NCBI GenBank assembly: GCA_030604825.1
Contig: JAUVVB010000010.1
Coordinates: 2,109-66,108 of the forward strand
DNA from: Chloroflexota bacterium
GTDB taxonomy: Bacteria; Chloroflexota; Dehalococcoidia; E44-bin15
DNA: 64,000 bases
Direction of reading: 5' to 3'
Of the stretch, positions 4,558 through 52,408 are shown piece after piece. Position numbers and translations under genes: made by a program. The notes under the pieces were generated by a model. It was not told the DNA's origin. It did not search any database and was given only the letters and a program-made list of their open reading frames with translations. The number at the start of each line of letters is the position of its first letter. The first letter of the stretch is position 1.

Positions 4558-5867
4558 CCAAGCCCATCGTTGCCATAATGGGCAGGCCAAACGTGGGCAA
4601 GTCCACCCTGTTCAATCGCCTGGTGGGAAAGCCGATGGCCATCACCGAGCACACCCCCGGCACCACCAGGGATCGCCTCTATGCCGACATCGTCTGGAGG
4701 GACTCCAGCCTCACCCTCATCGATACCGGCGGCCTGTTTCCCACCCCACCATCGGAGCTGGCCCACAGGGTGAAGGAGCAGGTGCAGGTAGCCATGGATG
4801 AGGCCGATGTAATCATCTTCCTGGTGGATGTAGTGGACGGGGCAACCGTTATGGACAAGGAGATCGCCGAAACCCTGCGCCGCTCGGGAAAGCCGGTAAT
4901 GCTTGCCGTCAACAAGGCCGATAACGAGCAGCGCCGCCAGGAAGCGCTTCAGTTCTACGAGCTTGCCATGGGAGACCCCCTTCCCATCAGCGCCTATCAC
5001 AACATCGGCGTGGACCAGCTGCTCGATATGGTAGTGGAAAATCTCCCCTTCTTCCCCCCTGAGGAGGAGCTGGAGATGATGAAGGTTGCCATTGTGGGTC
5101 GCCCCAATGTGGGAAAGTCCATGCTCCTCAACGCCATCCTGAGGCAGGAGCGGGCCATCGTCACCGATACCCCGGGCACCACCAGGGATGCCCTGGACAC
5201 CATTTTTGAGTATAATGGCCAGCGTATGCTCCTCATCGATACCGCTGGCATTCGGAGGAGGGGAAAGGTTGAGGTGGGCATCGAGCGCTACAGCGTGGCC
5301 AGGGCGCTGCGCGCCATCAGCCGAGCCGATGTTGCCCTGCTCATCACCGAGGCCACCGAGGCCATCACCGCTCAGGATACCCACATCGCCGGCTACATCC
5401 AGGAGGCGTTCAAGGGGATGGTGCTGGTGGTTAATAAATGGGACCTGGTAGAGGAGATGGCGGACCGCTCCCAGTGGACCAGGGAGACCCGGCAACGGCT
5501 CAGGTTCATGCCTTACGTGCCCATCCTTTTCATCTCCGCCAAATACGGCAGGGGAATAGACGATGTTCTCAACGCAGCCAGGGAAATCTTCGAGGAGCGA
5601 CAGAAGCGCGTCGCCACCGCCCTGCTAAATAGCGTCATCCGCGATGCGGTGGATACCCATGCCCCCCCTTCAGTGAGGGGCAAAAGGCTTAAAATCCTTT
5701 ACGCCACCCAGGCGGAGATAAATCCCCCCACATTCGTCTTATTCATCAACGATCCCACCCTGATGCACTTCTCCTATCAGCGCTACCTGGAGAACAGGCT
5801 GCGCCAGGACTTTGGCTTTAAGGGAACGCCACTGCGCCTCATCTTCAAGAGAAGGGGTGAAAGGTGA
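4554..5867 (+). CDS. der: Ribosome-associated GTPase Der/EngA (two tandem GTPase domains)
   Basis: GRPNVGKS appears twice, plus DTGG/DTAG and NKAD/NKWD motifs and a KH-like C-terminus. Confidence 0.9.
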   Translation: MTKPIVAIMGRPNVGKSTLFNRLVGKPMAITEHTPGTTRDRLYADIVWRDSSLTLIDTGGLFPTPPSELAHRVKEQVQVAMDEADVIIFLVDVVDGATVMDKEIAETLRRSGKPVMLAVNKADNEQRRQEALQFYELAMGDPLPISAYHNIGVDQLLDMVVENLPFFPPEEELEMMKVAIVGRPNVGKSMLLNAILRQERAIVTDTPGTTRDALDTIFEYNGQRMLLIDTAGIRRRGKVEVGIERYSVARALRAISRADVALLITEATEAITAQDTHIAGYIQEAFKGMVLVVNKWDLVEEMADRSQWTRETRQRLRFMPYVPILFISAKYGRGIDDVLNAAREIFEERQKRVATALLNSVIRDAVDTHAPPSVRGKRLKILYATQAEINPPTFVLFINDPTLMHFSYQRYLENRLRQDFGFKGTPLRLIFKRRGER

Positions 5868-6490
5868 TCGTTCTCAAGTTTATCGGCATCGTCCTTCTGG
5901 GCTATCTCATCGGCGCCATCCCTTTTGGCGTCATCGCGGGAAGGCTGACTCGGGGCATCGATGTGAGGCAATATGGCAGTGGCAGCATGGGGGCGACCAA
6001 CGTATTGCGCACCATTGGCGCCCGGGCAGGCATCCTGGTCTTCGTGGCCGACGTGGCAAAGGGGGCAGCGGCGGTGGCCCTGGCCTGGCTCATTTTCGCC
6101 TCATCGCCCCATGTGGCCTGGGGTCAGGTGGCCGGGGGGGCGGCAGCCGTCATCGGGCATAGCTGGCCCATATATGTCAAATTCCAGGGCGGGCGCGGCG
6201 TGACCACCGGCCTGGGCGCTCTGATGACGATGCTCTGGCCGGTAGCTCTCATCTGCCTCGCCATCTTCGCCATCGTTTTGGGGTTATCCCGCTATGTCTC
6301 CCTAGGCTCCATGCTGGCAGCCTCGGCAGCGATAGTGTTCACCATCCCCTTCATTATCCTGGGGGAGGAACCTTTTGCCTACCTGGTTTATGGATTGGTT
6401 GTGGTACCCATAGTGCTCTTTCGCCATCGGGGAAACATTCAACGGCTAATTTGCGGAGGAGAGCCAAGGATAGGCAGGACAAGCCCATGA
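5864..6490 (+). CDS. plsY: Glycerol-3-phosphate acyltransferase PlsY
   Basis: GSGSMGATNVLRTIG motif in a polytopic membrane protein. It sits in the conserved der-plsY-gpsA cluster. Confidence 0.85.
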   Translation: MIVLKFIGIVLLGYLIGAIPFGVIAGRLTRGIDVRQYGSGSMGATNVLRTIGARAGILVFVADVAKGAAAVALAWLIFASSPHVAWGQVAGGAAAVIGHSWPIYVKFQGGRGVTTGLGALMTMLWPVALICLAIFAIVLGLSRYVSLGSMLAASAAIVFTIPFIILGEEPFAYLVYGLVVVPIVLFRHRGNIQRLICGGEPRIGRTSP

Positions 6491-7473
6491 AGGTCGCCAT
6501 CATCGGCACCACCGGCTGGGGGACAACCCTGGGGATAATGCTCGGCCGAAGGGACATGGAGGTCGCCCTGTGGGCCAGAACCAGGGAGGAGGCTGAAAGG
6601 CTGGACAGGGAGAGGGAGAACGCCCAGCGCCTGCCTGGCGTTCGCCTTCCCCAAAACCTATCCCCCACCGCCTCCATAGCGGAAGCGCTCCAAGGCGCCT
6701 CGTTGGTTATCCTCGCCGTGCCCTCCCAGGAGATGAGGGCCAATGTCCGGCTTTTGAAGGAGCACGTCGATGAATCGATGCCCATCCTGAGCGCTGCCAA
6801 AGGGCTGGAGCTGGGAACGGCAAAAAGGATGAGCCAGGTGATCGCCGAGGAGCTCGGGCCGGCGCACAGGTCAAATATCTGTGTGCTCTCCGGGCCAAAC
6901 CTATCCCGGGAGATCGTTCAAGGTTTGCCAGCATCAACGGTGGTCGCCGCAGAGGATACGTCACTGGCGGAAAGGGTTAAACGGATAATGAGCTCGCCAA
7001 CCTTCCAGGTTTATACCAGCGACGACGTGGTGGGGGTTGAACTGGGGGGAGCGCTTAAGAACATCATCGCCCTGGGCGCAGGCATGGCCGATGGGCTGGG
7101 CTATGGCAACAATGCCAAGGCTGCCTATATGGCGCAAGGCCTTACCGAGATCACCCGCCTCGGGGTTGCCGCCGGGGCAAGCCCCATCACCTTCATTGGG
7201 CTTTCTTGCCTGGGGGACCTGCTGGCCACTTGCTCCAGCCCGCTGAGCCGAAATCACACCCTGGGGGAAGGGTTAGCCCAGGGACGCTCCCTGGAGGAGA
7301 TAAAGGCCTCTATGGGAAGCGTTGTCGAGGGGGTTGCCACCACCGCTGCCGCCCGCCAGATGGCCCGAGAGCTGGGGGTGGAGATGCCCATCACCGAGCA
7401 GATCTACCGCGTGCTCTTTGAAGGCGAGAGTCCCGCCCGGGCGATGGCAGAGCTGATAGGGGAGCAAGGCTAA
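6487..7473 (+). CDS. gpsA: NAD(P)H-dependent glycerol-3-phosphate dehydrogenase
   Basis: MKVAIIGTTGWGTTLG Rossmann N-terminus. I place the start at the internal ATG at 6487 rather than 6451 because it overlaps the plsY end. Confidence 0.85.
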   Translation: MKVAIIGTTGWGTTLGIMLGRRDMEVALWARTREEAERLDRERENAQRLPGVRLPQNLSPTASIAEALQGASLVILAVPSQEMRANVRLLKEHVDESMPILSAAKGLELGTAKRMSQVIAEELGPAHRSNICVLSGPNLSREIVQGLPASTVVAAEDTSLAERVKRIMSSPTFQVYTSDDVVGVELGGALKNIIALGAGMADGLGYGNNAKAAYMAQGLTEITRLGVAAGASPITFIGLSCLGDLLATCSSPLSRNHTLGEGLAQGRSLEEIKASMGSVVEGVATTAAARQMARELGVEMPITEQIYRVLFEGESPARAMAELIGEQG

Positions 7474-8218: not shown

Positions 8219-9076
8219 TTACCCAACCTGGGCCACTATGGCTCGCCACCTATCCTCGGCCAGGACCTCTATTGTCTTAGCCCCCGCATCCCCAAGCCTT
8301 TCGCCCACCCCTTGAAGCCGGTCTTCAGCGATGCCACCAGCGATGAGAATGCCCCCTGCCTTGAGGCAGAGCGCCAGGGGATGGGAAAGCTCCTCGATGA
8401 CATCGGCAGTGATATTGGCCACCACGAGGTCAAACCTCGCATCGAGGGGAAGGGTCCCCTCCTCAACGGTTACCAGGTGAGCCACTCCATTGGCCTGGAT
8501 GTTTCCCTTCGCCACCGTCACCGCCGTGGGGTTGATGTCCACGGCCTGAACCGATGATGCCTCCAGCTTTGCCGCCGCTATAGCCAGAATCCCCGAGCCC
8601 GTCCCCAGGTCGAGCACCGCCATCCCCGGCCGAAGATATCGCTCCAGGGCCAACAGGCATAGCCTGGTGGTGGCATGCTCCCCGCTGCCAAAGGCCATCC
8701 CCGGGTCAAGCTCGATGACCACCTCGCCTGGCTTGGCCTTATAATCCTCCCAGGCCGGCTTTATCACCAGGCGCGCCCCCACCCTGAAGGTCTTGAAGTG
8801 CTTCCTCCAGGCGGTCTCCCATTCCTGCTCCTCGAATTCGCATTGGGAAAGCTCCACGGGACCTTTAAGCGCCAAGGAGGCCAGGGCCTGCTCAAGCTCC
8901 AGCCTCCTCTTGGGAAGGGAGATATCAACGGGAAGAAATATCTTGACTATGGCTTTTGCATCGGGGATGAGCTCCTGCTCTATGGCAACGCCGCCGTGGC
9001 CAAAGCCACCAAATACCTCCGCCACCAGCTCAGCATCGCCGGCCTGAACCTGGGCAGATAATTCAAGCCACCTCAT
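8219..9076 (-). CDS. prmA: Ribosomal protein L11 methyltransferase
   Basis: 285 aa with the SAM-binding LDLGTGSGILAIAAAKLEA motif. It lies in the dnaJ-prmA-rsmE arrangement common in Firmicutes and Chloroflexi. Confidence 0.8.
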   Translation of the reverse strand: MRWLELSAQVQAGDAELVAEVFGGFGHGGVAIEQELIPDAKAIVKIFLPVDISLPKRRLELEQALASLALKGPVELSQCEFEEQEWETAWRKHFKTFRVGARLVIKPAWEDYKAKPGEVVIELDPGMAFGSGEHATTRLCLLALERYLRPGMAVLDLGTGSGILAIAAAKLEASSVQAVDINPTAVTVAKGNIQANGVAHLVTVEEGTLPLDARFDLVVANITADVIEELSHPLALCLKAGGILIAGGIAEDRLQGVGERLGDAGAKTIEVLAEDRWRAIVAQVG

Positions 9077-9084
9077 CGCCTATT

Positions 9085-10200
9085 TTAGCTGCCGAAGGCA
9101 TCCCTTATGCGGTGTAAAAATCCCTTTTCGCCCTCGGGCATACTGGCCTCTCCCAGGCTTTCTGCCAGCTCCTGGAAAAGCCTTCTCTGGCGCTCATCCA
9201 GCGAGGTGGGGGTGATCACGTGAGCTATTACGACCTGATCACCCCTTCCCCCTCCCCTGAGATGAGGTACCCCCTTCTCCTTGAGGCGAAATAGCTTTCC
9301 CATTTGGGTTCCCGGCGGAATCTTGAGGGTAACCGGGCTATCTACCGTAGGCACCTCCACCTCAGCCCCCAGGGCCGCCTGGGCGAAGTTGATGGGCAGG
9401 TCATAGATGATGTCATCCCCCCTGCGCTGGAAGAAGGGATGCTCCTCAACCGAGAGGGCGATATAAAGGTTCCCCGCACCCGCACCCCAGCTCCCCGCGT
9501 TGCCCTCCCCGCTGAGGCGAATCTGGGAGCCATCGTCTACCCCGGCCGGGATGCGAACCGAGATGCGGCGCTGCCTTCTCTCCTTTCCCGAGCCGCGGCA
9601 ATGATGACAGGGATGGGTGATGATCCTGCCATCACCGCCACAGCGGTCGCAGGGGGTGACGTTGACAAAGCGCCCAAAGATGCTGCGCTGCACCCGGCGC
9701 AACTGCCCCGTCCCGTTGCACTGGGGACACCTTGAGGGCTGGCTTCCCGGCTCGCTGCCCACCCCATGACACTGGGAGCAGTTCTCGATGCGCTCAACCT
9801 CGATCTCCCTTTCGCAGCCGAAAACCGCCTCCTCAAAGGAGATGGAAAGGGAATAGCGAAGGTCAGCACCCTGCTGTGGGCCGCGCCGGGCGGCGGTGGT
9901 GGCGCCACCGAAGAAGCTATCGAAGATATCGCCAAATCCCCGGAAGATGTCGAAGTCCTCAAAGCCTCGACCAAAGCCCTCCCCCACGTGCCTGAAGCGA
10001 TCGTAGTTCGCCCTCTTTTCGGGGTCGGAGAGCACCTCATAGGCCTCGTTGAGCTCCTTGAACCTCTCCTCAGCCCCATCCGCCTTATTGCGGTCGGGGT
10101 GGTGCTGAAAGGCGAGCTTCCTGAAGGCCCGCTTTATCTCCTCCGCCGAGGCCGACCGATCTAGGCCTAAAACCTCATAATAATCTCTTTTGGCAGCCAT
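9085..10200 (-). CDS. dnaJ: Chaperone DnaJ
   Basis: J-domain (YYEVLGL...HPDRN), a G/F region and four CxxCxGxG zinc-finger repeats. Confidence 0.95.
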
Positions 10201-31132: not shown

Positions 31133-31207
31133 TGGAGCCAGCGGTCGGATTCGAACCGACGACCGACGGTTTACGAAACCGTTGCTCTGCCTCTGAGCTA
31201 CGCTGGC
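31133..31207 (-). tRNA. tRNA-Thr (anticodon CGU)
   Basis: Manual cloverleaf: GCCAGCG-UA-GCUC-AGAGGCAGA-GAGC-A-ACGGU-UUCGUAA-ACCGU-CGGUC-GUCGG-UUCGAAU-CCGAC-CGCUGGC-U-CCA. Upstream promoter TTGCCC-N17-TATAAT at about 31228-31256. Confidence 0.9.
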
Positions 31208-41504: not shown

Positions 41505-42497
41505 ATGGCAAAAATCTATTATGACAAGGACGCAAACCTAGACCTGCTTAAGGACAGGAAAATCGGCGTAATCGGCTTCGGCAGCCAGGGGCATGCCCAC
41601 GCCCTGAACCTGAAGCAGAGCGGCTGCGATGTCATGGTGGGTGAGTTAAGGGATAGCGAGCCGTGGCGAAATGCCCAGGAGGCAGGGCTTAAGGTGGCCA
41701 CCGCCGAAGAGGTGGCCAAGGCCTCTGACATAATGGTGATGCTTGTCCCCGACCAGCTCCACCGCCAGGTGTATCATGCCTCCATCGAGAAGGGGCTTGA
41801 TGGAGGCAACATGCTCATGTTCGCCCACGGCTTCAACATCCACTACGGCCAGATAATCCCACCCCCCGATGTCGATGTCACCATGATAGCGCCCAAGTGT
41901 CCCGGCCATATGCTGCGCCGCCTCTATGAAGAGGGCTCCAGCGCCCCCGCCCTGGTGGCAATCCACCAGGATGCCACGGGCAAGGCAAAGGAGATCGCCC
42001 TGGCCTATGCCAAGGGAATCGGTTGCACCAAGGCCGGGGTCCTGGAGACCACCTTTGCCGAGGAGACGGAGACCGACCTCTTCGGGGAGCAGGTGGTGCT
42101 CTGCGGCGGCATCAGCGCACTGGTGAAGGCTGCCTTTGAAACCCTGGTGGATGCCGGCTATCAGCCGGAGATCGCCTACTTCGAATGCCTCCACGAGCTA
42201 AAGCTAATCATCGACCTCATCTACCAGGGAGGCCTGAGCTATATGCGCTATTCGGTGAGCGATACCGCAGAGTATGGCGATTATACCCGCGGGCCGAGGG
42301 TGATCGACGACCTGGTGCGGGAGGAGATGTGGCAGATACTGAGCGAGATTCAGGATGGCACCTTCGCCCGGGAGTGGATACTGGAGAATCAGGCGGGGCG
42401 TCCCAGCTTCAACCTGATGAGGCGCATGGAGGCGGAGCACGAGATAGAGGAAGTGGGCAAGAAGCTCAGGGAGATGATGCCCTGGCTCAGGGGATGA
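41505..42497 (+). CDS. ilvC: Ketol-acid reductoisomerase
   Basis: 330 aa. [13 protein letters not shown] Rossmann motif and C-terminal KARI domain. Confidence 0.95.
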
Positions 42498-42513: not shown

Positions 42514-43341
42514 ATGGCTATTCCGTCGGAGAAAAATATAGAACTTCCGCTACTCCTTGAAATAGAAGCAGCAGGAGGGAAGGCAAGAGCATCAGACTTG
42601 TATGATGCTGTAGCAAGGCATTTCCCGAGCCTCACTCAGGCTGACCAAGAAAGGAGACACCTCAAAAGTAACTTGCCTATTTGGCGGAACAGGGTTCAAT
42701 GGGCTAGGCAACACCTGGTTATCAAAGGCGAAGTCGACGCCCCCGCTCGAGGCATTTGGCGGATTACTGGAAAAGGAAGAGAACGACTGGGGAAAGGTGG
42801 ACAGGGTCCGTCGCCACCCCCACCTCCTCCACCTACGATTAGAGAGATATTAGAGAGAGAGACGCAGCAACTCCGCCAGCAGTTACATGACCTATTGATG
42901 AACTTAGACCCCCGACAGTTTGAGCTGTTTGCAACAAAGCTTCTTGAGAGTGTAGGCTTCACAGACCTGGAAGTGACGAACTATACTGGAGATGGTGGTA
43001 TCGATGGCTATGGAAATCTGGAGATGGGAGTGGTCAGAGTTAAAGCAGCATTTCAAGTGAAACGGTGGCGTCAAAATGTGCCCCGTCCTGAGATTGACCG
43101 CTTTCGTGGCGCGATAGCAGGAAGTTTTGACCAGGGGATATTCATTACCACGTCTGACTTCTCAGACGAAGCAAAGCAGGTATCGAGTAGGCCAGGAACG
43201 GTTGCCATTGTTCTAATCAATGGCAATAGGATTGTGGATATCCTGCTGGAAAAGGCATTAGGCGTTAGGCGTGAACCGCTCAGCATAACGAGAATTGATG
43301 AGGATTTCTTCATGGCCTTTGGCATTTCAGGGGAGGAGTAA
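42514..43341 (+). CDS. Mrr-like type IV restriction endonuclease (Mrr_N winged helix, poly-Pro linker, Mrr_cat), about 49% GC, embedded between ilvC and leuA
   Basis: Catalytic-domain signature FELFATKLLESVGFTDLEVTNYTGDGGIDGYGNLEMG...AFQVKRWRQNV...FRGAI matches PD-(D/E)xK Mrr_cat. Proline linker GGQGPSPPPPPPPT. 16-nt gaps on both sides, each with its own SD. Confidence 0.75.
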   Translation: MAIPSEKNIELPLLLEIEAAGGKARASDLYDAVARHFPSLTQADQERRHLKSNLPIWRNRVQWARQHLVIKGEVDAPARGIWRITGKGRERLGKGGQGPSPPPPPPPTIREILERETQQLRQQLHDLLMNLDPRQFELFATKLLESVGFTDLEVTNYTGDGGIDGYGNLEMGVVRVKAAFQVKRWRQNVPRPEIDRFRGAIAGSFDQGIFITTSDFSDEAKQVSSRPGTVAIVLINGNRIVDILLEKALGVRREPLSITRIDEDFFMAFGISGEE

Positions 43342-43356: not shown

Positions 43357-44892
43357 ATGGAGCGCGTTATAATCTTCGACACCACTTTAAGGGATGGGGA
43401 GCAATGCCCGGGGGCAACCCTCAACATCGATGAGAAGCTGGAGATTGCCCACCAGCTAGAGCGGCTGAAGGTGGATGTCATCGAGGCTGGCTTCCCCATT
43501 GCCTCCCCCGGGGACTTCGAGTCGGTTCGCCTCATCGCCAAGGAGGTGAGGGAGCCCATAATCTGCGCCCTGGCCCATGCCAATCCCGAGGCGGTGGACC
43601 GCGCCTGGGAGTCAATAAAGGAGGCAAAGAGGGGGCGGATTCACGTCTTCCTCTCCAGCTCCGACATTCACCTCACCCACCAGCTCAGGATGGGGCGTGA
43701 GGAGATCCTTGAGCTTGCCACCGCCATGGTGGCTCGCGCCAAGGGTTATCTGGAGGATGTGGAGTTCTCGCCCATGGACGCCACCCGCACCAACCCCGAG
43801 TTCATCTACCAGATCCTCGAGGCCACCATCGATGCCGGGGCAACGACGGTCAACATCCCCGATACCGTGGGCTACACCACCCCCGAGGAGTTCTCCCGGC
43901 TGATCAGGGGCATCTTCGAGAACGTGCCCAACATAGATAAGGCGGTGGTCAGCGTTCACTGCCATGACGACCTGGGCCTTGCCGCGGCCAATAGCCTGGC
44001 TGCCATCGCCAGTGGTGCCCGGCAGGTGGAATGCACCATCAATGGCATTGGTGAACGGGCAGGAAATGCCTCCATGGAGGAGATCGTGATGGCGCTCCAC
44101 ACCCGAAAGGACTTTTTCCAGCTGAGCACCAATATCGACACCACCCAGATCTATAAGACCAGCCGCCTGGTGAGTGAGCTTACTGGCTTCGCGGTACCGC
44201 CCAATAAGGCGGTGGTAGGGGCAAACGCCTTCCGCCATGAGGCCGGGATCCACCAGGATGGCATCCTGAAGGAGCCCACCACCTATGAGATCATGGATGC
44301 CCGCACCGTAGGGCTGCCAGCCAGCGCCCTGGTTCTGGGCAAGCACAGCGGGCGTCACGCCCTTAAGGCCAGGCTCGAGGAACTGGGCTATACCCTAAGC
44401 AAGGAGGAGCTAAATCGCGCCTTCTCCGCCTTCAAGGAGCTCGCCGACAAGAAGAAGGAGGTTACCGACCGCGACCTGGAGTCCCTGGTGGCCGAGGAGA
44501 TGCGCACCATATCGGAGACCTATCACCTGGACCAGGTTCAGATTTTCTGCGGCGACCGCAGCGTTCCCACCGCCACGGTCAGGCTCATCACCCCCGAGGG
44601 CAATGTCATCGCCGATGCCGCCCTGGGCACCGGCCCGGTGGACGCCGTCTATAAGGCCATCAACCGCCTGGTGGGAGTGCCCAACGTGCTCACCGAGTTC
44701 AGCGTTAAATCGGTGACCGAGGGCATCGATGCCATCGGTGAGGTGACAATAAGGATAGAGAGCGAGGGGAAGGTGTACACTGGAAGGGGCGCCGCCACCG
44801 ACATCATCGTTGCCAGCGCCAAAGCATATATGAACGCCCTCAACCGGCTCATAGCGGCAAAGGGCATCAAGGGAAAGGAATCCGGGTCATGA
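43357..44892 (+). CDS. leuA: 2-isopropylmalate synthase
   Basis: 511 aa. [18 protein letters not shown]...the LeuA catalytic TIM barrel plus the C-terminal regulatory domain. Confidence 0.9.
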
Positions 44893-45041
44893 CCTCGGAG
44901 GAGAAAGCTCAAGGAAAGGTCGAGAGCCGCCTGGCAAGCCTGGAGCTAAACTTCAAGATACTGCTGGCATTGATCCTGGTTAGCCTCAGCGCAAGCCTCG
45001 TCGCCCTGATAATAGCCCTGGTGACGCTGCTCACCGCCTAA
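44889..45041 (+). CDS. Possible 50-aa single-TM micro-protein between leuA and leuC ([50 protein letters not shown])
   Basis: The ATG overlaps the leuA stop as ATGA. The ORF ends 26 nt before the leuC ATG. Below the track's length cut-off. Confidence 0.3.
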
Positions 45042-45067
45042 TGGTGCAACCAAAAGGAGATTGCCCC

Positions 45068-46324
45068 ATGACCTTAGCCGAAAAGATCCTCGCTGCCCAT
45101 TCAGGCAAAGATAAGGTCAGCCCTGGCGAGTTCCTAAGCGTCAGGGTTGACCTGATATTGGCAAACGATGTCACCGCCCCCCTCGCCATCAGGGAGTTTC
45201 GCCGCATCGGCGTCCAAAAGGTCTTCGACCCCCAAAGGGTGGTGATGGTGCCCGACCATTTCGTGCCCAATAAGGACATCCCCTCCGCAGAGCAGGCAAA
45301 GCTGATGAGGGAATTCGCCCAGGAGCAGGGTTTGGTCTATTTCGAGGTGGGCAGGATGGGCATCGAGCATGTGCTGCTTCCGGAGCAGGGGTTGGTTGTC
45401 CCCGGGGATGTGGTCATTGGCGCCGACTCCCACACCTGCACCTATGGCGCTTTGGCGGCGTTTGCCACCGGGATGGGCTCCACCGACATCGCCTCCGCCA
45501 TGGCCACTGGAGAGATATGGATGAAGGTCCCGCCCACCATGAAGTTCGTCTATCAGGGCAGGCCGGGGAGATGGATCAGCGGCAAGGACCTCATCCTTTA
45601 TACCATCGGAGACATCGGGGTTGATGGCGCCCTCTACTCGGCAATGGAGTTTTCGGGCGAGGCCATCGATTCCCTTTCCCTGGACAGTCGCTTCAGCATG
45701 GCCAACATGGCCATCGAGGCTGGCGCCAAGGCAGGCATCTTCAGGGTTGATAAAAAGACCTTAGCTTATGTTCGGTCCCGCGCCAAGCGTCCCTACAAGG
45801 TCTATGAGCCCGCTGAGGATGCTCAATATGCAAAAGTCATTGAGTACGATGCCTCCAATATCGAGCCCCAGGTTGCCTTCCCCCACCTCCCCTCCAACAC
45901 CAGGCCCATAAGCGAGGTGGGCGAGGTGAGGATCGACCAGGTGGTGATCGGCAGCTGTACCAACGGCCGCCTTGAGGACCTGGAGACCGCCGCCGAGGTG
46001 CTCAAATGGAGAAGGGTTCACCCCGAGGTGCGCCTGATCATCATCCCCGGCTCCCAGAAGGTCTATCTTGAGGCGATGCGCCGCGGCCTGATCGAGACCT
46101 TCGTCCTGGCCGGGGCAGCGGTGAGCACCCCCACCTGCGGTCCCTGCCTCGGCGGGCATATGGGAGTGCTGGCAGCAGGAGAGTGCTGCCTTGCCACAAC
46201 CAATCGCAATTTCGTGGGACGCATGGGAAGCCCGGATTCGGAGGTCTATCTGGCGGGCCCGGCAATCGCCGCCGCCAGCGCCATACTGGGCAGGATTGGA
46301 AGTCCGGAGGAGGTGGCGGCATGA
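45068..46324 (+). CDS. leuC: 3-isopropylmalate dehydratase large subunit
   Basis: Aconitase-family motifs (VPDHF, GSCTNGR, CGPCLG). Start set at MTLAEKIL (AAGGAG SD) rather than 45041. Confidence 0.9.
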
Positions 46325-46363
46325 AGGCTTTATGGAATCTTTTATTTGAAAGGAGGTGAAGAA

Positions 46364-46567
46364 ATGAAAGGAACGATAAAGAGACTCATCCGGGACCGGG
46401 GTTTCGGCTTCATCGGTGCAGAAGATGGGGAAGAGTTCTTCTTCCACCGCTCCGCTTTGGAAGGGATAGATTTTGAGGCTCTAGAAGAGGGCGACAGCGT
46501 AGAGTTCAATTCGGAGCGGGGACCTAAAGGCCTCCGGGCAGTGAATATAAGGACGATAAAAGCTTAG
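46364..46567 (+). CDS. Cold-shock protein (CspA family)
   Basis: MKGTIKRLIRDRGFGFIGAEDGEEFFFHRSAL, the RNP1/RNP2-like OB-fold motifs. Start set at the internal Met. Confidence 0.85.
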   Translation: MKGTIKRLIRDRGFGFIGAEDGEEFFFHRSALEGIDFEALEEGDSVEFNSERGPKGLRAVNIRTIKA

Positions 46568-46581
46568 CATAAGGGGGTGAT

Positions 46582-46866
46582 ATGCTAACAGTGACAGCAC
46601 ATGCGGCAGAGGAGCTTAAGGCTGTGGCCGAGGCTGAGGGCACAGAGCCTGACCAGGTGCTAAGGCTGGTCCCTGCGGAGTCAGGAATGCTGACTCTGGT
46701 CCTTGATACGGTCAGGGAGGGAGACCAGGTGGTGGAGCATGAAGGAGGCAAGGTACTGTTGGTCGGAGCCGAACTAGCTGACGCCGTTGACGGGCTGATG
46801 CTGGATGCTGAGCATACGGCAGAGGGTTGCCGACTAGTTATATCTGGACCCACTCCCGAAGCCTGA
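46582..46866 (+). CDS. HesB/IscA-fold protein lacking the Cys ligands (degenerate A-type carrier-like)
   Basis: LTVTAHAAEELKA...LRLVPAESG.LTLVLD...EGDQVVEHEGGKVLLVGAELADAVDGLMLD aligns with the IscA fold. Only one Cys, and it is not at the ligand positions. Confidence 0.5.
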   Translation: MLTVTAHAAEELKAVAEAEGTEPDQVLRLVPAESGMLTLVLDTVREGDQVVEHEGGKVLLVGAELADAVDGLMLDAEHTAEGCRLVISGPTPEA

Positions 46867-47027
46867 GTCAACGACGGAGATGTGAGCGAATGCGGCAAGT
46901 GCCACCCCTATCGCCATCAAGGCGGCTGCCCAGCCAGGCGGATTAGCGAACCCAAAGTTCGTATATACCACTTTTAGGCGAAATTCCGTAAGAATGTTCA
47001 GGAAAAAGGGATAAAAAGGAGGTCAGA

Positions 47028-47303
47028 ATGAATATCTACGTAGGCAATTTGTCACGCGAGGTCACAGAGGAGGAATTGCGGGAGGCATTTGAGGCTTTCG
47101 GGCAGATCACATCCGCCAGAATCATCACGGACAAATTCAGCGGCGTATCGAGAGGATTCGGATTCGTGGAGATGTCTGACAAAGCTGAAGCCCAAGCCGC
47201 GATCACCGGCCTGAACGGCAAGGAGCTGAAAGAACGAGCGCTTATCGTTAATGAGGCTCGCCCTCGCTCCGAAGGCGGTCGAGGTGGTGGGCAGCGCTTC
47301 TAG
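47028..47303 (+). CDS. RRM-type RNA-binding protein with a Gly-rich tail (Rbp family)
   Basis: RNP2 IYVGNL and RNP1 RGFGFVEM; C-terminal GGRGGGQRF. Confidence 0.85.
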   Translation: MNIYVGNLSREVTEEELREAFEAFGQITSARIITDKFSGVSRGFGFVEMSDKAEAQAAITGLNGKELKERALIVNEARPRSEGGRGGGQRF

Positions 47304-47442
47304 TAAGCGGCACTCGGACATAATAGAGTCATAGTAGAACTTCGCAAAGCCCAGAAGCGTTATCTGAAATGCCAGGCCGAGCAATGGTCTGACTAGCTGC
47401 CGAGGAGCAGCGTTAGTAGCAGAGGTTAAACTATGGAGAAGG

Positions 47443-47519
47443 CACAACCGGCTGTGGCGATGGCTGCCGCCAGCGCCATACTGGGCAGGATCGCAAGCCC
47501 GGAGGAGATGGTGGGGTGA
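47443..47519 (+). repeat. Diverged duplicate of the leuC 3' end (about 80% nt identity to 46255-46324). It keeps a 25-aa in-frame micro-[31 protein letters not shown], whose stop overlaps the SD of the next gene
   Basis: ggctgccgccagcgccatactgggcaggatcgcaagcccggaggagatggtggggtga compared with the leuC end cgccgccgccagcgccatactgggcaggattggaagtccggaggaggtggcggcatga. Confidence 0.8.
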
Positions 47520-47528
47520 AGGAGGGGG

Positions 47529-48494
47529 ATGTGTTCAGTGAGAGCAGAACATAAAAAACGCCAAATTATTGATAAAGCAAACAGAAGAGCTAAGAAGCTA
47601 AGGCCTAAATGCTTTTTTAGTAGTTGCAGCGAACTTGCAATAAACTCACATTCTCAATCAGTGGGGCGTTCCCTAAAGAATATAAGTGTAGACGATAAAG
47701 TAATAGGGCTTAGTATAGATCCGTTTCGCCCTCCGGAAGATGTTGACGATTGGTTTAAGGAGATAGGAATTAGGCAAGCCTCGCTTTTCAAAGGCTTCTG
47801 CTGGAAACACGATAGTGAGTTTTTTAGATCCGTTGATGATTTCGAAATGGCAGATATGGATAAGGTGACATTGGCAAAATTGGCATTTAGAACGTTCGCA
47901 ATGGCAGTCAGAATTAAACAGCAGGAATCATGCAGGATGTCGACGGTCATTAAAGAGAGTGAAGGAATATTCTATACTGACGACCTTTACTATCATAATG
48001 TAGGCCAGAGAGTGTTTCTAAAAAAGGATTTTCCTTACTATTTGAGTAAATTTGAGAAAATGTTTAATTCTGACAACTACGACGATGTAGAAAGCGCGGT
48101 TTTTTTGCTCAATAGAAACATTGGGATATCATGTTCGACTGTTATTGACCCAACTCTTATAAGCCCAAAAAACCTATACGACCATGATATCGTTGACCTC
48201 CAACCAGCGATGTTTTTTACTGTCTTACCGGATTTTGCCGAAACAACTGTCATATTCACATATTTCATAAACGATAAACAAGCAGCTCTCAACTTTATTG
48301 GAGAGCATGATAAACTAGAGGATATAGTATTCAATCACTGTGAAGATGTATTATTTAATCCTCATTTTTTCCACTCTCTTACTGATAGCCAAAAGAGGAA
48401 AATCGTAAAGGCTTTAGCTCCTTGGATAGTTTGGGGAAAAGTGCAATTCCCCGATTTATTTAAAGTGAATCTAACTTCACCAAATTACTATTAA
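47529..48494 (+). CDS. Orphan 321-aa protein, about 38% GC in a roughly 62% GC context; no family I can assign; basic N-terminus with a Cys/His cluster
   Basis: Long clean ORF with an AGGAGGGGG SD; AT-rich codon usage quite unlike its neighbours. N-terminus KKRQIIDKANRRAKKLRPKCFFSSCSELAINSHS ... GFCWKHDSEFF. Sits between the leuC-end duplicate and leuD. Confidence 0.6.
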   Translation: MCSVRAEHKKRQIIDKANRRAKKLRPKCFFSSCSELAINSHSQSVGRSLKNISVDDKVIGLSIDPFRPPEDVDDWFKEIGIRQASLFKGFCWKHDSEFFRSVDDFEMADMDKVTLAKLAFRTFAMAVRIKQQESCRMSTVIKESEGIFYTDDLYYHNVGQRVFLKKDFPYYLSKFEKMFNSDNYDDVESAVFLLNRNIGISCSTVIDPTLISPKNLYDHDIVDLQPAMFFTVLPDFAETTVIFTYFINDKQAALNFIGEHDKLEDIVFNHCEDVLFNPHFFHSLTDSQKRKIVKALAPWIVWGKVQFPDLFKVNLTSPNYY

Positions 48495-48542
48495 CAAAGA
48501 CATTATCTGAGATTGGGGAGATTTTAGGAAGGGGGATACAGC

Positions 48543-49058
48543 TTGAAACTGCAAGGCAAAGTCCACAAATACGGGGCCAACATCGATACCGATGCCATCA
48601 TCCCCACTCGCTACCTGAATATATCCGAGCCCGCGGAGCTGGCAAAGCACTGCATGGAGGGTATTGACCCCGATTTCGTGGGCCGGATGGAAAAGGGCGA
48701 TTTCATCGTTGCTGGCACCAACTTCGGCTACGGCTCCTCAAGGGAGCATGCCCCCATCGCCATTAAGGAGGCGGGGATATCGTGCGTCATCGCCTCAAGC
48801 TTTGCCCGCATCTTCTTCCGAAACGCCATCAATATCGGCCTGCCCCTGTTGGAGTGTGCCCCGGCGGAGGAGGAAAGCGAGGCGGGGGACATCCTGGAGG
48901 TGGAGCTCAAAAGCGGCAAGATCAGGAACATCACCAGGGATAAGCTTTTTCAGGCCGAGCCCTATCCCGATTTCATGATGGAGCTCATCTCGGCAGGGGG
49001 GCTCATCGAACATACCAAGAAGAAGATAGAGGCGAGGAGGCGCCAGGGTGAGATTTGA
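48543..49058 (+). CDS. leuD: 3-isopropylmalate dehydratase small subunit
   Basis: 171 aa. LeuD swivel-domain motifs ([13 protein letters not shown]). TTG start with a GAAGGGGG SD. Confidence 0.85.
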
Positions 49059-50139
49059 CATCGCCCTTTTGCCCGGCGATGGCGTTGGTCCCGAGGTCAC
49101 CGCTGAGGCGGTCAAGGTTCTTGAGGCGGTGGGCAAAAGGTTCCATCACCAGTTCTCCTTTAATCAAGGGGACATTGGCGGGATCGCCATCGACCACCAC
49201 GGGGTGGCTCTGACCGGGGATACGCTCAACATGTGCCAGAGGTGCGATGCCGTCCTCCTAGGGGCGGTGGGCGGCCCCAAATGGGATGACCCCAGGGCGA
49301 AGGTTCGCCCTGAGGACGGGCTTCTCGCCCTGAGAAAGGGGCTCAGGCTCTTTGCCAACCTCCGCCCGGTAAAGGTTCTCCCCATGCTCATCGATTCCAC
49401 CACCATAAAGCCCGACGTGATTAAAGGGGTTGACCTGGTGGTGGTTCGTGAGCTTACCGGCGGGCTCTACTTCGGCAAACCCAAGAGGCAGTGGCAGACA
49501 GCCAGAGGGAGGAAAGCGGTAGATACCCTGGCCTACTCCGAGAAGGAGATCGAGCGCATCCTCAGGGTTGGCTTTGAGCTTGCCCGAAGCCGCAGGAAAA
49601 GGCTGGCCTCGGTGGACAAGGCCAATGTGCTGGAATCCTCCCGGCTTTGGCGGCAGATCGCCATAGAGCTCTCCATCCACTATCCCGATGTGGAGCTGCA
49701 GCACCTGTTGGTGGATGCCTGCGCCATGAGACTCATCCAGCGCCCTTCGGAGTTCGATGTAATCGTCACCGAGAACATGTTTGGCGACATCCTCACCGAT
49801 GAGGCATCGATGCTTGCCGGCTCCATGGGGATGCTGCCCTCGGCAAGCCTCGCCGGAATTCCCAAGGCAGGGGAAAAGACCTTCGGCATGTACGAGCCCA
49901 TCCATGGCAGCGCCCCGAGAAGGGCGGGGCAGAACATAGCCAACCCCATCGCCATGATCACGAGCGTGGCCATGATGCTGCGCTACTCTTTCGCCCTGGC
50001 GGAGGAGGCGGAAGCGATAGAGGGGGCGGTAAGCGATGTGCTGGAGGAAGGTTACCGCACTTATGATATAATGGAGGAAGGCAAAAAGCAGATAGGCACC
50101 AGGGAGATGGGGGATTTAATTGCGGGGAGAATGGGTTGA
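49048..50139 (+). CDS. leuB: 3-isopropylmalate dehydrogenase
   Basis: 363 aa. Isocitrate/isopropylmalate dehydrogenase signature [26 protein letters not shown]. Confidence 0.9.
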
Positions 50140-50660
50140 TGGTGGAGAGGGTGGCAATCTTCATAGACGGAAGCAACTTCTACCACACCTTGAAGGACAA
50201 CTTCGCGCGGGCAGACCTGGATTTTGGAGCTCTTGCCTCTAAACTGTGTGGTGACCGCCTTCTTGTCCGCACCTATTACTACAATGTCCCTGTTGACCAG
50301 AAAAGGGAGCCCCAGAGATATGCTGACCAGCGGAAATTTCTCGCTCGGCTGCACCTGACCCCCTACCTTACCCTAAAGCTAGGACGGCTGGTTTACCGAG
50401 GAGGTATCCCCATCGAGAAGGGCGTTGATGTAAGGTTAGCCACCGACATGTTGAACCTGGCATGGAAGAATGTTTACGATACAGCGATCACCGTTACCGG
50501 AGATGGGGACTTTGCCGATGCGGTGGAGGCGGTGAAAGAGCTGGGCAAACATGTGGAGAACGCCTTTACCAAGAAGGGGTTGTCTCAGCACCTTCGGCAG
50601 GCTTGCGACCGCTTAATTATTTTAGACGAGGGTTTTCTGAAGGAATGCTGGCTAAAATAA
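50136..50660 (+). CDS. NYN-domain (LabA-like) nuclease, about 52% GC; start overlaps the leuB stop
   Basis: [14 protein letters not shown]...[17 protein letters not shown]...[16 protein letters not shown] matches the acidic-residue pattern of NYN/PIN-like ribonucleases. Confidence 0.7.
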
Positions 50661-50812: not shown

Positions 50813-52408
50813 ATGCGGCAGATCCAGCTCTATGACACCACCCTCAGAGATGGGGCGCAGCGGGAGGGAATCTCCTTCACCGTTGAGGATAAGCTCAGGA
50901 TCGCCAGTAAGCTGGACGAGCTGGGCATCCACTTCATCGAGGGGGGCTGGCCGGGCTCAAACCCCAAGGACGATGAGTTTTTCGCCAAAGCGAAGCAGCT
51001 CAACCTCTCCCACGCCCAGCTTGCCGCCTTCGCCTCAACCCGGCGACCAAAGATAAAGGCGGAAAGGGACCCTAGCCTTCGCGCCCTGCTTGAGGCGGGA
51101 ACCAGGGTGGTTACCATAGTGGGGAAGAGCTGGGAGCACCACGTAACTCAGGTATTGGGGACCACCCTTGAGGAAAACCTGCGCATGATCGCCGATTCCA
51201 TAGGCTATCTAAAATCCCAGGGGCGCATGGTCTTCTTCGATGCCGAGCACTTCTTCGATGGCTATAAGGCAAACCCGCAATACGCCCTGAAGACCATAAA
51301 GGCGGCCGCCGAAGCCGGGGCTGATTGCCTCATCCTCTGCGACACCAATGGTGGCGCCCTGCCCTCTGAGGTAGCTGTCGCCACCACTGCCGCCGCGGAG
51401 ATGGGCATCCCCCTGGGCATCCATGCCCATAACGATGCCGAGCTTGCGGTGGCAAATACCCTAGCCGCCATCGAGGCGGGAGCCACCCAAGTTCAGGGAA
51501 CCATCAACGGCTACGGCGAGCGCTGCGGAAACACCAACCTGTGCTCCATCATCCCCACCTTCAAGCTCAAAATGGGCATCCCCTGCATCAGCGACGAGCA
51601 GCTGGCCAAGCTGACCGAGATGGCCCACTATGTGGCCGAGGTAGCCAACCTCACCGTGGATAACCACCTTCCCTACGTAGGGTCAAGCGCCTTCGCCCAC
51701 AAGGCGGGGCTTCACGTCGATGCCATGATGAAGTGGGAGGAGAGCTATCATCACATCAATCCCGAGCAGGTGGGCAATCGGTGGCGCACCCTTATATCCG
51801 AGCTTTCGGGAAGGGGAGGCATAGTTTATAAGGCCAGGGAAAGGGGACTGGAGCTGGCCGCCAAGGATGAGCAGACCCGCGCCATACTGGAACAGATCAA
51901 GTCCATGGAGAGCCGCGGCTTCCAGTATGATGGCGCCGAAGCCTCCTTCGAGCTCCTTATCCGGCGGGCTCAGCCGGACTACCATCCCCCCTTCGAGCTG
52001 GTGGATTTCATGGTGGTGGTGGAAAAAAGGCGCCGCCCACCAACCATCGAGGAGGAGGAGCTCCTATCTGAGGCCACGGTGAAGGTGAAGGTGGGGACCG
52101 ATGTGATCCATACCGCAGCCGAGGGAAATGGTCCGGTAAATGCCCTAGATGCAGCGCTCCGTAAAGCATTGCTGGTTTTCTACCCCAGCCTGGCGGCGGT
52201 AAGGCTGGTGGACTATAAGGTTCGCGCCATCGAAGGAACGGAGGGAACCGCCTCCAGGGTGCGCGTCCTCATCGAATCCAGCGATGGCGAGCATGAGTGG
52301 AGGACGGTGGGCAGCTCCACCAACATCATCGAGGCAAGCTGGCTGGCACTGGCCGATAGCCTTGAGTACTGGCTGCTGAAAAAGCAAGGAGAGGGGACTA
52401 TACTTTAG
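50813..52408 (+). CDS. cimA: (R)-citramalate synthase (LeuA-family, CimA type)
   Basis: 531 aa. LYDTTLRDGAQ...IEGGWPGSNPKD...HAHND. The C-terminal LeuA-dimer-like domain and length fit CimA. Confidence 0.75.
   Translation: MRQIQLYDTTLRDGAQREGISFTVEDKLRIASKLDELGIHFIEGGWPGSNPKDDEFFAKAKQLNLSHAQLAAFASTRRPKIKAERDPSLRALLEAGTRVVTIVGKSWEHHVTQVLGTTLEENLRMIADSIGYLKSQGRMVFFDAEHFFDGYKANPQYALKTIKAAAEAGADCLILCDTNGGALPSEVAVATTAAAEMGIPLGIHAHNDAELAVANTLAAIEAGATQVQGTINGYGERCGNTNLCSIIPTFKLKMGIPCISDEQLAKLTEMAHYVAEVANLTVDNHLPYVGSSAFAHKAGLHVDAMMKWEESYHHINPEQVGNRWRTLISELSGRGGIVYKARERGLELAAKDEQTRAILEQIKSMESRGFQYDGAEASFELLIRRAQPDYHPPFELVDFMVVVEKRRRPPTIEEEELLSEATVKVKVGTDVIHTAAEGNGPVNALDAALRKALLVFYPSLAAVRLVDYKVRAIEGTEGTASRVRVLIESSDGEHEWRTVGSSTNIIEASWLALADSLEYWLLKKQGEGTIL

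Follow-up and report, generated by a model that had tools for sequence, protein, structure and literature searches.

How did a gene of foreign composition come to lie between leuC and leuD in the ilv-leu operon of a Chloroflexota genome, and what might it do there? The gene, here called X, is a 321-codon open reading frame (ORF) in a 64,000-nt stretch of assembly GCA_030604825.1 (contig JAUVVB010000010.1; hereafter the window). A sequence-only reading of the window had proposed that X was an orphan gene delivered by site-specific insertion at the 3′ end of leuC, that a duplicated leuC end in front of X was the resulting att-type target duplication, and that X was a candidate defence or toxin-like protein. 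We find that X is intact and maintained by selection, that it belongs to a very large and uncharacterised family scattered by horizontal transfer, and that the leuC–leuD gap is a hotspot whose low-GC cargo differs between lineages. The overall explanation we favour, in which X is old cargo of this hotspot, the leuC end was duplicated later, and X is a conflict effector with a zinc motif, has in our judgement about an even chance of being right.

X is compositionally foreign to the operon. Its GC content is 0.373 (0.357 at third codon positions, GC3), compared with 0.606 (GC3 0.759) for leuC and 0.568 (GC3 0.767) for leuD, in keeping with the earlier description of a low-GC ORF. Overall the intact ORF has 37% GC, where the operon has about 60%. 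The duplication of the leuC end was likewise confirmed. The two copies form a direct repeat of 67 nt, 85% identical and 1195 nt apart (Table 1), with a 26-nt exact core (46271–46296 in the first copy) that occurs twice in the window where 100 shuffles give an expectation of 0. X does lie in line with the operon behind a micro-ORF whose last 23 codons match the leuC end.

The two copies, however, have to be assigned differently. The micro-ORF had been taken for a decayed copy of the last leuC codons. The functional leuC of the window ends in GSPEEVAA and is followed by a cold-shock-domain (CSD) gene, while the distal copy ends in EEMVG, like the leuC genes of relatives (EEVVG in L003, EEVVVG in L009 and EEIVG in L001). 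In L003 and L009 the leuC stop codon is followed by a G-rich ribosome-binding site (RBS) and the GTG of X, and the junction between relic and X in the window aligns with these. Because it ends like the leuC of relatives and shares their RBS–GTG junction, the distal copy is the ancestral leuC end, still joined to X, and X is older than the duplication. The block between the copies, containing the CSD gene, a HesB-like ORF and an RRM gene, is a later insertion that arrived upstream of the ancestral end together with a replacement leuC end. L003 and L009 are without this block, and L179, the closest relative found (LeuC 91% identical), likewise has a CSD gene directly after leuC. The repeat is thus supported as an insertion scar, and the att-type interpretation was right in kind, although it named the wrong gene: the repeat brackets the CSD/HesB-like/RRM block, not X. 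A repeat search of the window found neither direct nor inverted terminal repeats around X, and none downstream of it. The ORFs between 42000 and 52000 include no integrase or recombinase, only ilv and leu genes, Mrr, CSD, HesB-like, RRM, X and NYN genes.

The leuC–leuD junction in relatives had been suggested as a means of delimiting the insertion. Homologues of X occupy this junction on other metagenome contigs (P0003 on L001 and L093; P0005 on L003–L007 and L094; P0002 on L009), and in L011 the end of leuC is directly followed by P0007 (49% identity). These orthologues represent four other Dehalococcoidia lineages, all of them free of the repeat. In L001, L003 and L009 the leuC–X–leuD junctions have a single leuC end and no repeat, so X was not delivered by the duplication. 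The GC content of X is 0.38–0.40 (GC3 0.39–0.40) in the junction-linked relatives except L011, with a GC3 of 0.71–0.75 in the flanking leu genes where these are complete (L001 and L003). Thus the position of X is conserved in related genomes, but its GC content does not approach that of the operon, as a housekeeping family conserved at this position had been expected to show.

Among the window, L001, L003 and L009, the ratio of nonsynonymous to synonymous divergence (dN/dS) of X is 0.21–0.31, and that of neighbouring genes 0.1–0.15. Synonymous divergence (dS) of X in the same four lineages is 0.58–1.05, compared with 0.65–1.07 for full-length leuC and leuD, a comparison that, with four taxa only, is a weak test of whether X is decoupled from its host flanks. 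No co-conversion tracts were seen in the flanks of X, and the flanks beside X are no less diverged than elsewhere. The simplest reading is that X was gained once, before these four lineages split, and has since descended vertically under purifying selection. X is nonetheless rare in the clade: the database search returned 8 close homologues (at least 42% identity), of which five are leu-linked, whereas LeuC clusters that share 81% identity or more with the LeuC of the window number at least 120. Low-GC contigs (L002, L010, L008, L092, L095–99 and L012) carry close homologues that do not lie in leu operons. In a neighbour-joining tree these copies nest among the leu-linked ones, and X has therefore moved between hosts. 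The GC3 of X remains at 0.36–0.40 in four lineages separated by a dS of about 0.6–1, in an operon with a GC3 of about 0.75. Either selection favours the AT-richness of X, or it is selection that keeps GC3 high in the core genes, or exchange of X is commoner than four taxa reveal.

X is one of several kinds of cargo at this site. Five configurations of the leuC–leuD gap were seen in the clade, and throughout the hotspot the cargo has a GC3 of 0.37–0.60, compared with 0.70–0.75 for the core genes. In L180 (Dehalococcoidia, GCA_014859165.1, JACUUT010000004.1) the gap between leuC and leuD holds, in this order, a PEPCK-like gene, a further leuC-end copy and a 237-aa unknown ORF (o237). This second copy (region 8940–9090, core 8999–9027) is at least 110 nt long, and the duplication, which has an architecture like that of the window with other cargo and another repeat length, is an independent event. 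In L181 and L182 the order is leuC, a 64-aa membrane ORF (o64), a 170-aa ORF (o170), a gene for an S-adenosylmethionine (SAM)-methyltransferase, a 208-aa ORF (o208) and leuD; the L179 contig ends inside its CSD gene. The membrane ORFs directly behind leuC in L001 (62 aa, 2023–2211) and L181 (64 aa, 4986–5180) are homologous, and after them comes X in L001 and the 170-aa ORF, methyltransferase and 208-aa ORF in L181. X and the three-gene set are therefore alternative cargo behind the same gene. The L181 ORF o208 (6483–7109; 37.6% GC), directly upstream of leuD, occupies the slot held elsewhere by X. A HEPN assignment is not claimed for o208, which has no Pfam hit and for which the sole pointers are its RNKFAH motif (Rx4H) and a PDB match to HepS that is not significant (E 0.75).

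Other gaps of the operon vary in a similar manner. The ilvC–leuA gap holds the Mrr gene in the window and two ORFs, including a PaREP1 gene, in L180, and is empty in L003; in L181 an Mrr gene stands directly upstream of leuA. The leuB–cimA gap holds the NYN gene in the window and is empty in L001 and L181, and in L180 leuB is followed by genes for LexA and a methyltransferase. Taken as a whole, the ilv-leu operon resembles a row of slots for cargo. An amino-acid operon that is essential acts, in Dehalococcoidia, as a hotspot where accessory genes turn over and the leuC 3′ end has been duplicated more than once, and the locus offers a compact natural case of cassettes entering operons without a dedicated integrase.

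X had been described as belonging to no recognisable family. This holds for the curated libraries, since Pfam, NCBIfam, PADLOC and PHROGs gave no match to X, but its orphan status does not. A word-indexed search returned the 8 close homologues (42–100% identity), and an exhaustive profile search built from X and these homologues returned 3001 cluster representatives (50% identity clusters) at E ≤ 1e-3, 1213 of them at E ≤ 1e-10. Relatives among species-representative genomes span many phyla, including Psychrobacter, Acinetobacter, Legionella, alphaproteobacteria, Bacteroidota, Planctomycetota, Patescibacteria and one metagenome-assembled genome (MAG) of a Woesearchaeota. Members on RefSeq plasmids and Escherichia coli chromosomes are annotated as 'SEC-C domain-containing protein' or 'YecA family protein' and match the family profile over their full length (about 300 residues; E 1e-52 to 1e-105). 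These names derive solely from SEC-C, a 19-residue N-terminal motif that is carried by a subset of the family and therefore does not define it. The motif (PF02810) has no hit in X or its close homologues, and ten distant members searched against the curated libraries gave the SEC-C motif alone, plus one weak Cas2 match (PADLOC, E 0.02). The SEC-C label says nothing of the conserved 300-residue core of these proteins, and the family assignment corrects this habit of annotation. Our literature search found nothing relevant on the family, its accessions or a gene between leuC and leuD, no paper testing a family member, and no function described for the RefSeq members.

Homologues share a start at the GTG at 47538, and from there X has the 318 aa of the NCBI protein P0001; residue numbers below follow the 321-aa version. 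In an alignment of 330 members, C28, C33, H41, G89, C91, H94, D95, F99, R121, E126, K130 and E272 are near-invariant, and the hallmarks of the family are C-x4-10-C-x7-H, GFCxxHD, R-x4-E-x3-K and a C-terminal Glu. C28 is found in 293 members, C33 in 313 and H41 in 315, the remainder being gapped there except for one Ser at position 28; the corresponding counts are 325, 325 and 321 for C91, H94 and D95, and 325, 300 and 278 for R121, E126 and K130. The Cys/His cluster noticed previously along with the basic N-terminus is thus real and conserved, with its numbering amended: residue 39 is Asn, not His, and C90 and H93 become C91 and H94. X itself has nine of the ten signature residues (C28, C33, H41, C91, H94, D95, R121, E126, K130 and E272). 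At position 126 it carries Ala (GCA, 47904–47906), which is found in just 3 of the 330 members, the window copy included, whereas Glu occupies this position in 300 (91%) and in all seven of the closest homologues. One A-to-C change of GAA would yield the GCA codon. The substitution could mark an attenuated allele or be a consensus error of the metagenome assembly. X also contains a perfect 14-nt inverted repeat (47907–47920 and 48061–48074), with arms 140 nt apart.

An AlphaFold2 model of X based on an alignment of 56 sequences has a mean predicted local distance difference test score (pLDDT) of 94.4 and a predicted template modelling score (pTM) of 0.93; an earlier run with 8 sequences had left the conserved N-terminal domain unresolved (pLDDT 63), which the larger alignment mended. 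The model consists of a basic N-terminal helix, a small beta-rich domain bearing the Cys/His residues, a helical hairpin, with some 30 residues in each of its two helices, that bears positions R121, E126 and K130, and a C-terminal alpha/beta domain; C91-x2-H94-D95 is carried by a beta-hairpin followed by a helix. The structure search that had been suggested gave no match, as Foldseek returned nothing from PDB or BFVD at E ≤ 1e-3. The predicted fold of X is therefore without counterpart among solved or viral predicted structures. A sequence-profile search of PDB gave one marginal, C2H2-like hit, the zinc finger of SWI5 (E 0.007), and no similarity to HNH, GIY-YIG, LAGLIDADG or PD-(D/E)xK nucleases emerged from sequence or fold comparison.

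What X does is best approached through the contexts of its family. Family genes lie below the rest of their locus in GC content in 95 of 99 non-redundant loci (median difference −8 points). Of 5426 complete E. coli genomes, 92 have a family member, at one or two copies each. A P2-like prophage of E. coli O157:H7 has a member (WP_001317900.1; L178, 9055–10194) between gpD and ogr. A Salmonella IncHI2 plasmid has one in a P4-like element that also contains an integrase gene, AlpA, a DUF927 gene and a pair of AAA ATPase and DUF4435 genes, which we read as PARIS following Rousset et al. 2022 (PMC9122126). In Enterococcus a plasmid-borne member lies near AbiH with IS3 copies on both sides, and in Lactococcus one lies next to an IS6 element on a plasmid, some 5 kb away from the gene for a type ISP restriction–modification (R-M) enzyme. 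Pfam assignments of 103 same-strand neighbours are led by AAA_21 (5), followed by ResIII, ABC_tran and SMC_N (3 each), and MmeI_TRD, Methylase_S and Phage_integrase (2 each); named by product, the neighbours include MmeI, HsdS and integrases. X has no relatives in viral contigs or in 50,697 phage records, among which the E. coli member matches only two from Listeria phages. In Table S1 of PMC9122126 a lone 'SEC-C' gene (WP_053286111) is listed in the P4 defence hotspot of at least 15 E. coli genomes; it was not among the systems tested there and is a candidate member of the X family. The sporadic, low-GC and stand-alone occurrence of the family in prophages, P4-like elements, plasmids and R-M islands plausibly fits a conflict or defence effector. 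Should this be its role, a large unannotated family (about 3000 clusters at 50% identity) with a new predicted fold would be added to the defence repertoire, and it is readily open to experiment through its E. coli and Salmonella members.

A mechanism can be proposed. The insertions would result from recombination anchored in the conserved leuC 3′ end. A circular fragment may have entered by a single crossover of the Campbell type, or variants of the operon may have undergone homology-facilitated illegitimate recombination. We favour these over a dedicated integrase, since no recombinase is found nearby and the repeat is about 70 nt long in one of the two independent duplications and at least 110 nt in the other. 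Read-through of the operon would provide the transcript of X, and the RBS behind the stop codon of leuC or of the relic would serve for its translation. C28, C33, H41 and C91 may bind zinc, with H94, D95, R121, E126, K130 and E272 forming a putative hydrolytic active site that probably acts on nucleic acid. The family would then be a stand-alone conflict effector of an anti-phage, abortive-infection or addiction type, and the E126A allele of the window may be attenuated. For X itself, the role of a single-gene conflict module is the reading that we consider most likely, though it falls somewhat short of an even chance, and zinc-binding, hydrolase-like effector chemistry is more doubtful still. 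A wider possibility, which we consider unlikely but worth stating, is that the family is a zinc-dependent hydrolytic effector of new fold and makes up a widespread single-gene anti-phage or abortive-infection system of P2/P4 hotspots, plasmids and R-M islands, and that Dehalococcoidia, with their streamlined genomes, park X, Mrr, NYN and possibly a HEPN-like o208 in the essential ilv-leu operon, with the leuC 3′ end as an anchor for cassette turnover. If so, the operon would harbour a defence hotspot in which conflict genes are both expressed and retained.

Several points weigh against the explanation of X as old hotspot cargo with a conflict function. Vertical retention over a dS of about 0.6–1 is long for a typical defence gene, and the GC3 of X is unameliorated over that time. 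Two scars only lie behind the recombination mechanism, and conservation alone behind the zinc and active sites; the Ala at position 126 could be an assembly error. The 103 same-strand neighbours include no conserved partner gene. The support that a conflict role draws from PADLOC, with 246 models (mainly R-M) matched by genes within 2 kb of family members and 98 by genes beyond 4.5 kb, is crude and only suggestive, since the contrast counts models rather than proteins. Many members lie directly downstream, on the same strand, of genes for ParC, urea carboxylase, UvrB, methylmalonyl-CoA mutase or ABC-F (housekeeping-adjacent loci L017, L033/L043, L042, L052/L054 and L024). The other leuC–leuD cargo (cold-shock, RRM, PEPCK-like and SAM-methyltransferase genes) is not defence-like. 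A conflict or defence role remains a reasonable hypothesis, but the earlier argument from association with the Mrr and NYN genes, which are indeed operon neighbours of X, is weak. The family does recur in prophage, P4-like, plasmid and R-M contexts, as a defence role had led the sequence-only reading to ask, though with no constant partner and often beside housekeeping genes. The placement of members downstream of conserved genes echoes that of X after leuC.

Other explanations account for parts of this evidence. The arrival of X itself by site-specific integration at the leuC 3′ end, with the repeat as its att-type target duplication, draws on a genuine repeat immediately upstream of a compositionally foreign gene, but we give it hardly any credence, given the single, repeat-free leuC ends in L001, L003 and L009, copies that bracket the CSD/HesB-like/RRM block with none downstream of X, a distal copy contiguous with X exactly as leuC is in relatives, and no integrase nearby. 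The same intergenic site is filled in several lineages and the GC3 of X stays low, as might be expected if X were a free-standing selfish gene, similar to a homing endonuclease, that repeatedly invades the leuC/leuD junction and the 3′ flanks of other conserved genes. Its Cys/His and His-Asp motifs, the members behind UvrB, ParC, methylmalonyl-CoA mutase, urea carboxylase and ABC-F, and the nesting of non-leu copies among leu-linked ones in the neighbour-joining tree would also suit such a gene. Since the dS of X is close to that of the flanking genes, however, co-divergence explains the shared site, and the flanks bear no sign of co-conversion; the family stays at one copy, or at most two, per E. 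coli genome and is almost absent from the 50,697 phage records, the fold is unlike the four nuclease classes compared, and the slot holds unrelated cargo in relatives. We regard homing as improbable.

A lineage-specific housekeeping role, whether as an iron–sulfur (Fe-S) or LeuCD accessory factor or as a regulator of the operon, would agree with the conserved position, the purifying selection, a Cys-rich motif beside the gene of an Fe-S enzyme and an apparent translational coupling to leuC. It is very improbable in view of the few leu-linked homologues among at least 120 LeuC clusters, the other cargo found after leuC in three of three further relatives (two of them spanning the whole gap without X), the low GC foreign to the operon, and a family that elsewhere occupies prophages, plasmids and unrelated contexts with no enrichment near leu genes outside this clade. 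It is also possible, though unlikely, that X has no conflict role and is a neutral or decaying passenger, or a non-enzymatic nucleic-acid-binding or regulatory protein, with the E126A copy of the window on its way to loss. The Ala where 91% of the family has Glu, a dN/dS of 0.2–0.3 against 0.1–0.15 in neighbours, the basic N-terminus, the weak zinc-finger-like match and the heterogeneous contexts are consistent with this. Opposed to it are an ORF that is intact in every lineage, a dN/dS well below 1, and about ten polar residues conserved over more than 300 diverse sequences, which suggest catalysis rather than binding alone.

The remaining features of the locus are collected with those discussed above in Table 1. 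The host is placed in a clade of Dehalococcoidia because its LeuC is 81–91% identical to many proteins of MAGs so labelled. The 50-aa membrane ORF that overlaps leuA and leuC is probably a real small gene, since counterparts of 45–46 aa share its place in L003, L180 and L181. The HesB-like ORF neighbours the gene of an Fe-S enzyme subunit, LeuC. Between the X stop codon and the leuD start lie 48 nt. A promoter scan of 44800–49200 gave 6 promoter-like sites where 3.2 were expected, and the same region contains one terminator-like hairpin with a T-rich tail (48431–48454, within X near its 3′ end and upstream of leuD) where shuffles gave 4.5; both results are uninformative.

Table 1. Positions in the window of the ilv-leu operon genes, the repeat copies, the conserved codons of X and structured RNAs.
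Feature	Position	Strand	Basis or remark
ilvC	41505–42497	+	family-library matches
Mrr-type gene	42514–43341	+	library matches; slot ilvC–leuA
leuA	43357–44892	+	library matches
50-aa single-pass membrane ORF	44889–45041	+	overlaps leuA and leuC
leuC, 3-isopropylmalate dehydratase large subunit	45041–46324	+	427-aa ORF; NCBIfam TIGR02083, 1.7e-210
Repeat copy 1	46261–46327	+	functional leuC 3′ end and stop codon
Block between copies (CSD, HesB-like, RRM)	46325–47455	+	bracketed by leuC-end repeat
CSD gene	46346–46567	+	Pfam CSD, 1.3e-17
HesB/IscA-like ORF, weak, 94 aa	46582–46866	+	Pfam Fe-S_biosyn, E 0.0013, below cutoff
RRM RNA-binding gene	47028–47303	+	Pfam RRM_1, 1.9e-24
Micro-ORF, leuC-end relic	47433–47519	+	last 23 codons match leuC end
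Repeat copy 2	47456–47522	+	tail of micro-ORF; stop, then AGGAGG and X start
Gene X	47529–48494 (ATG, 321 aa) or from GTG 47538 (318 aa)	+	37% GC; uncharacterised family member
X codon C28	47610–47612	+	motif C-x4-C-x4-AINSHSQS; proposed zinc ligand
X codon C33	47625–47627	+	same motif; proposed zinc ligand
X codon H41	47649–47651	+	same motif; proposed zinc ligand
X codons C91-W-K-H94-D95	47799–47813	+	GFCxxHD motif; most conserved segment of family
X codons R121...A126...K130	47889–47918	+	long helix; family consensus R-x4-E-x3-K
leuD, small subunit	48543–49058	+	NCBIfam TIGR02087, 2.3e-62; TIGR02084, 8.3e-70
leuB	49048–50139	+	library matches
NYN gene	50136–50660	+	library matches
cimA/leuA2	50813–52408	+	library matches
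tRNA	31136–31207	−	Rfam, above gathering score
c-di-GMP-II riboswitch	61757–61840	−	Rfam, above gathering score
5S rRNA	62843–62960	−	Rfam, above gathering score

Precedents for parts of this arrangement exist. At att sites of the tRNA/tmRNA type, elements target and duplicate the 3′ end of a conserved gene, as in the ssrA-targeting islands of Dehalococcoides. Like such 3′-end-targeting integrative elements, the block in the window is flanked by a repeat of the target 3′ end, and insertions are stacked at one site, with a second independent case in a relative. Unlike them, the leuC–leuD inserts have no integrase in or near them, are 1–2 kb in size, target a protein-coding gene within an operon and show repeats of different length in the two cases, and X, unlike the cargo of these elements, has no flanking repeat. 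The C-x4-C-x7-H spacing of X is similar to that of C2H2- or treble-clef-like zinc knuckles, as in the weak SWI5 match, and the modelled hairpin-helix with C91-x2-H94-D95 resembles that of His-Me-finger nucleases; these likenesses are leads only, and neither group has a significant sequence or structure match to X.

The closest counterparts of X are the RefSeq SEC-C/YecA proteins on mobile elements of E. coli, Salmonella, Enterococcus and Lactococcus (e.g. WP_001317900.1 and WP_000248794.1), which are full-length homologues (E 1e-52 to 1e-62). They share with X the C..C..H, GFCxxHD and R..E..K motifs and a stand-alone, sporadic distribution; unlike X they carry an N-terminal SEC-C zinc motif, and they are only 21–24% identical to it. 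The P2 and P4 hotspots (PMC9122126) offer a further comparison: members of the family are found in both a P2-like prophage and a P4-like element, whereas X itself resides in a biosynthetic operon of a Dehalococcoidia genome and not in a phage.

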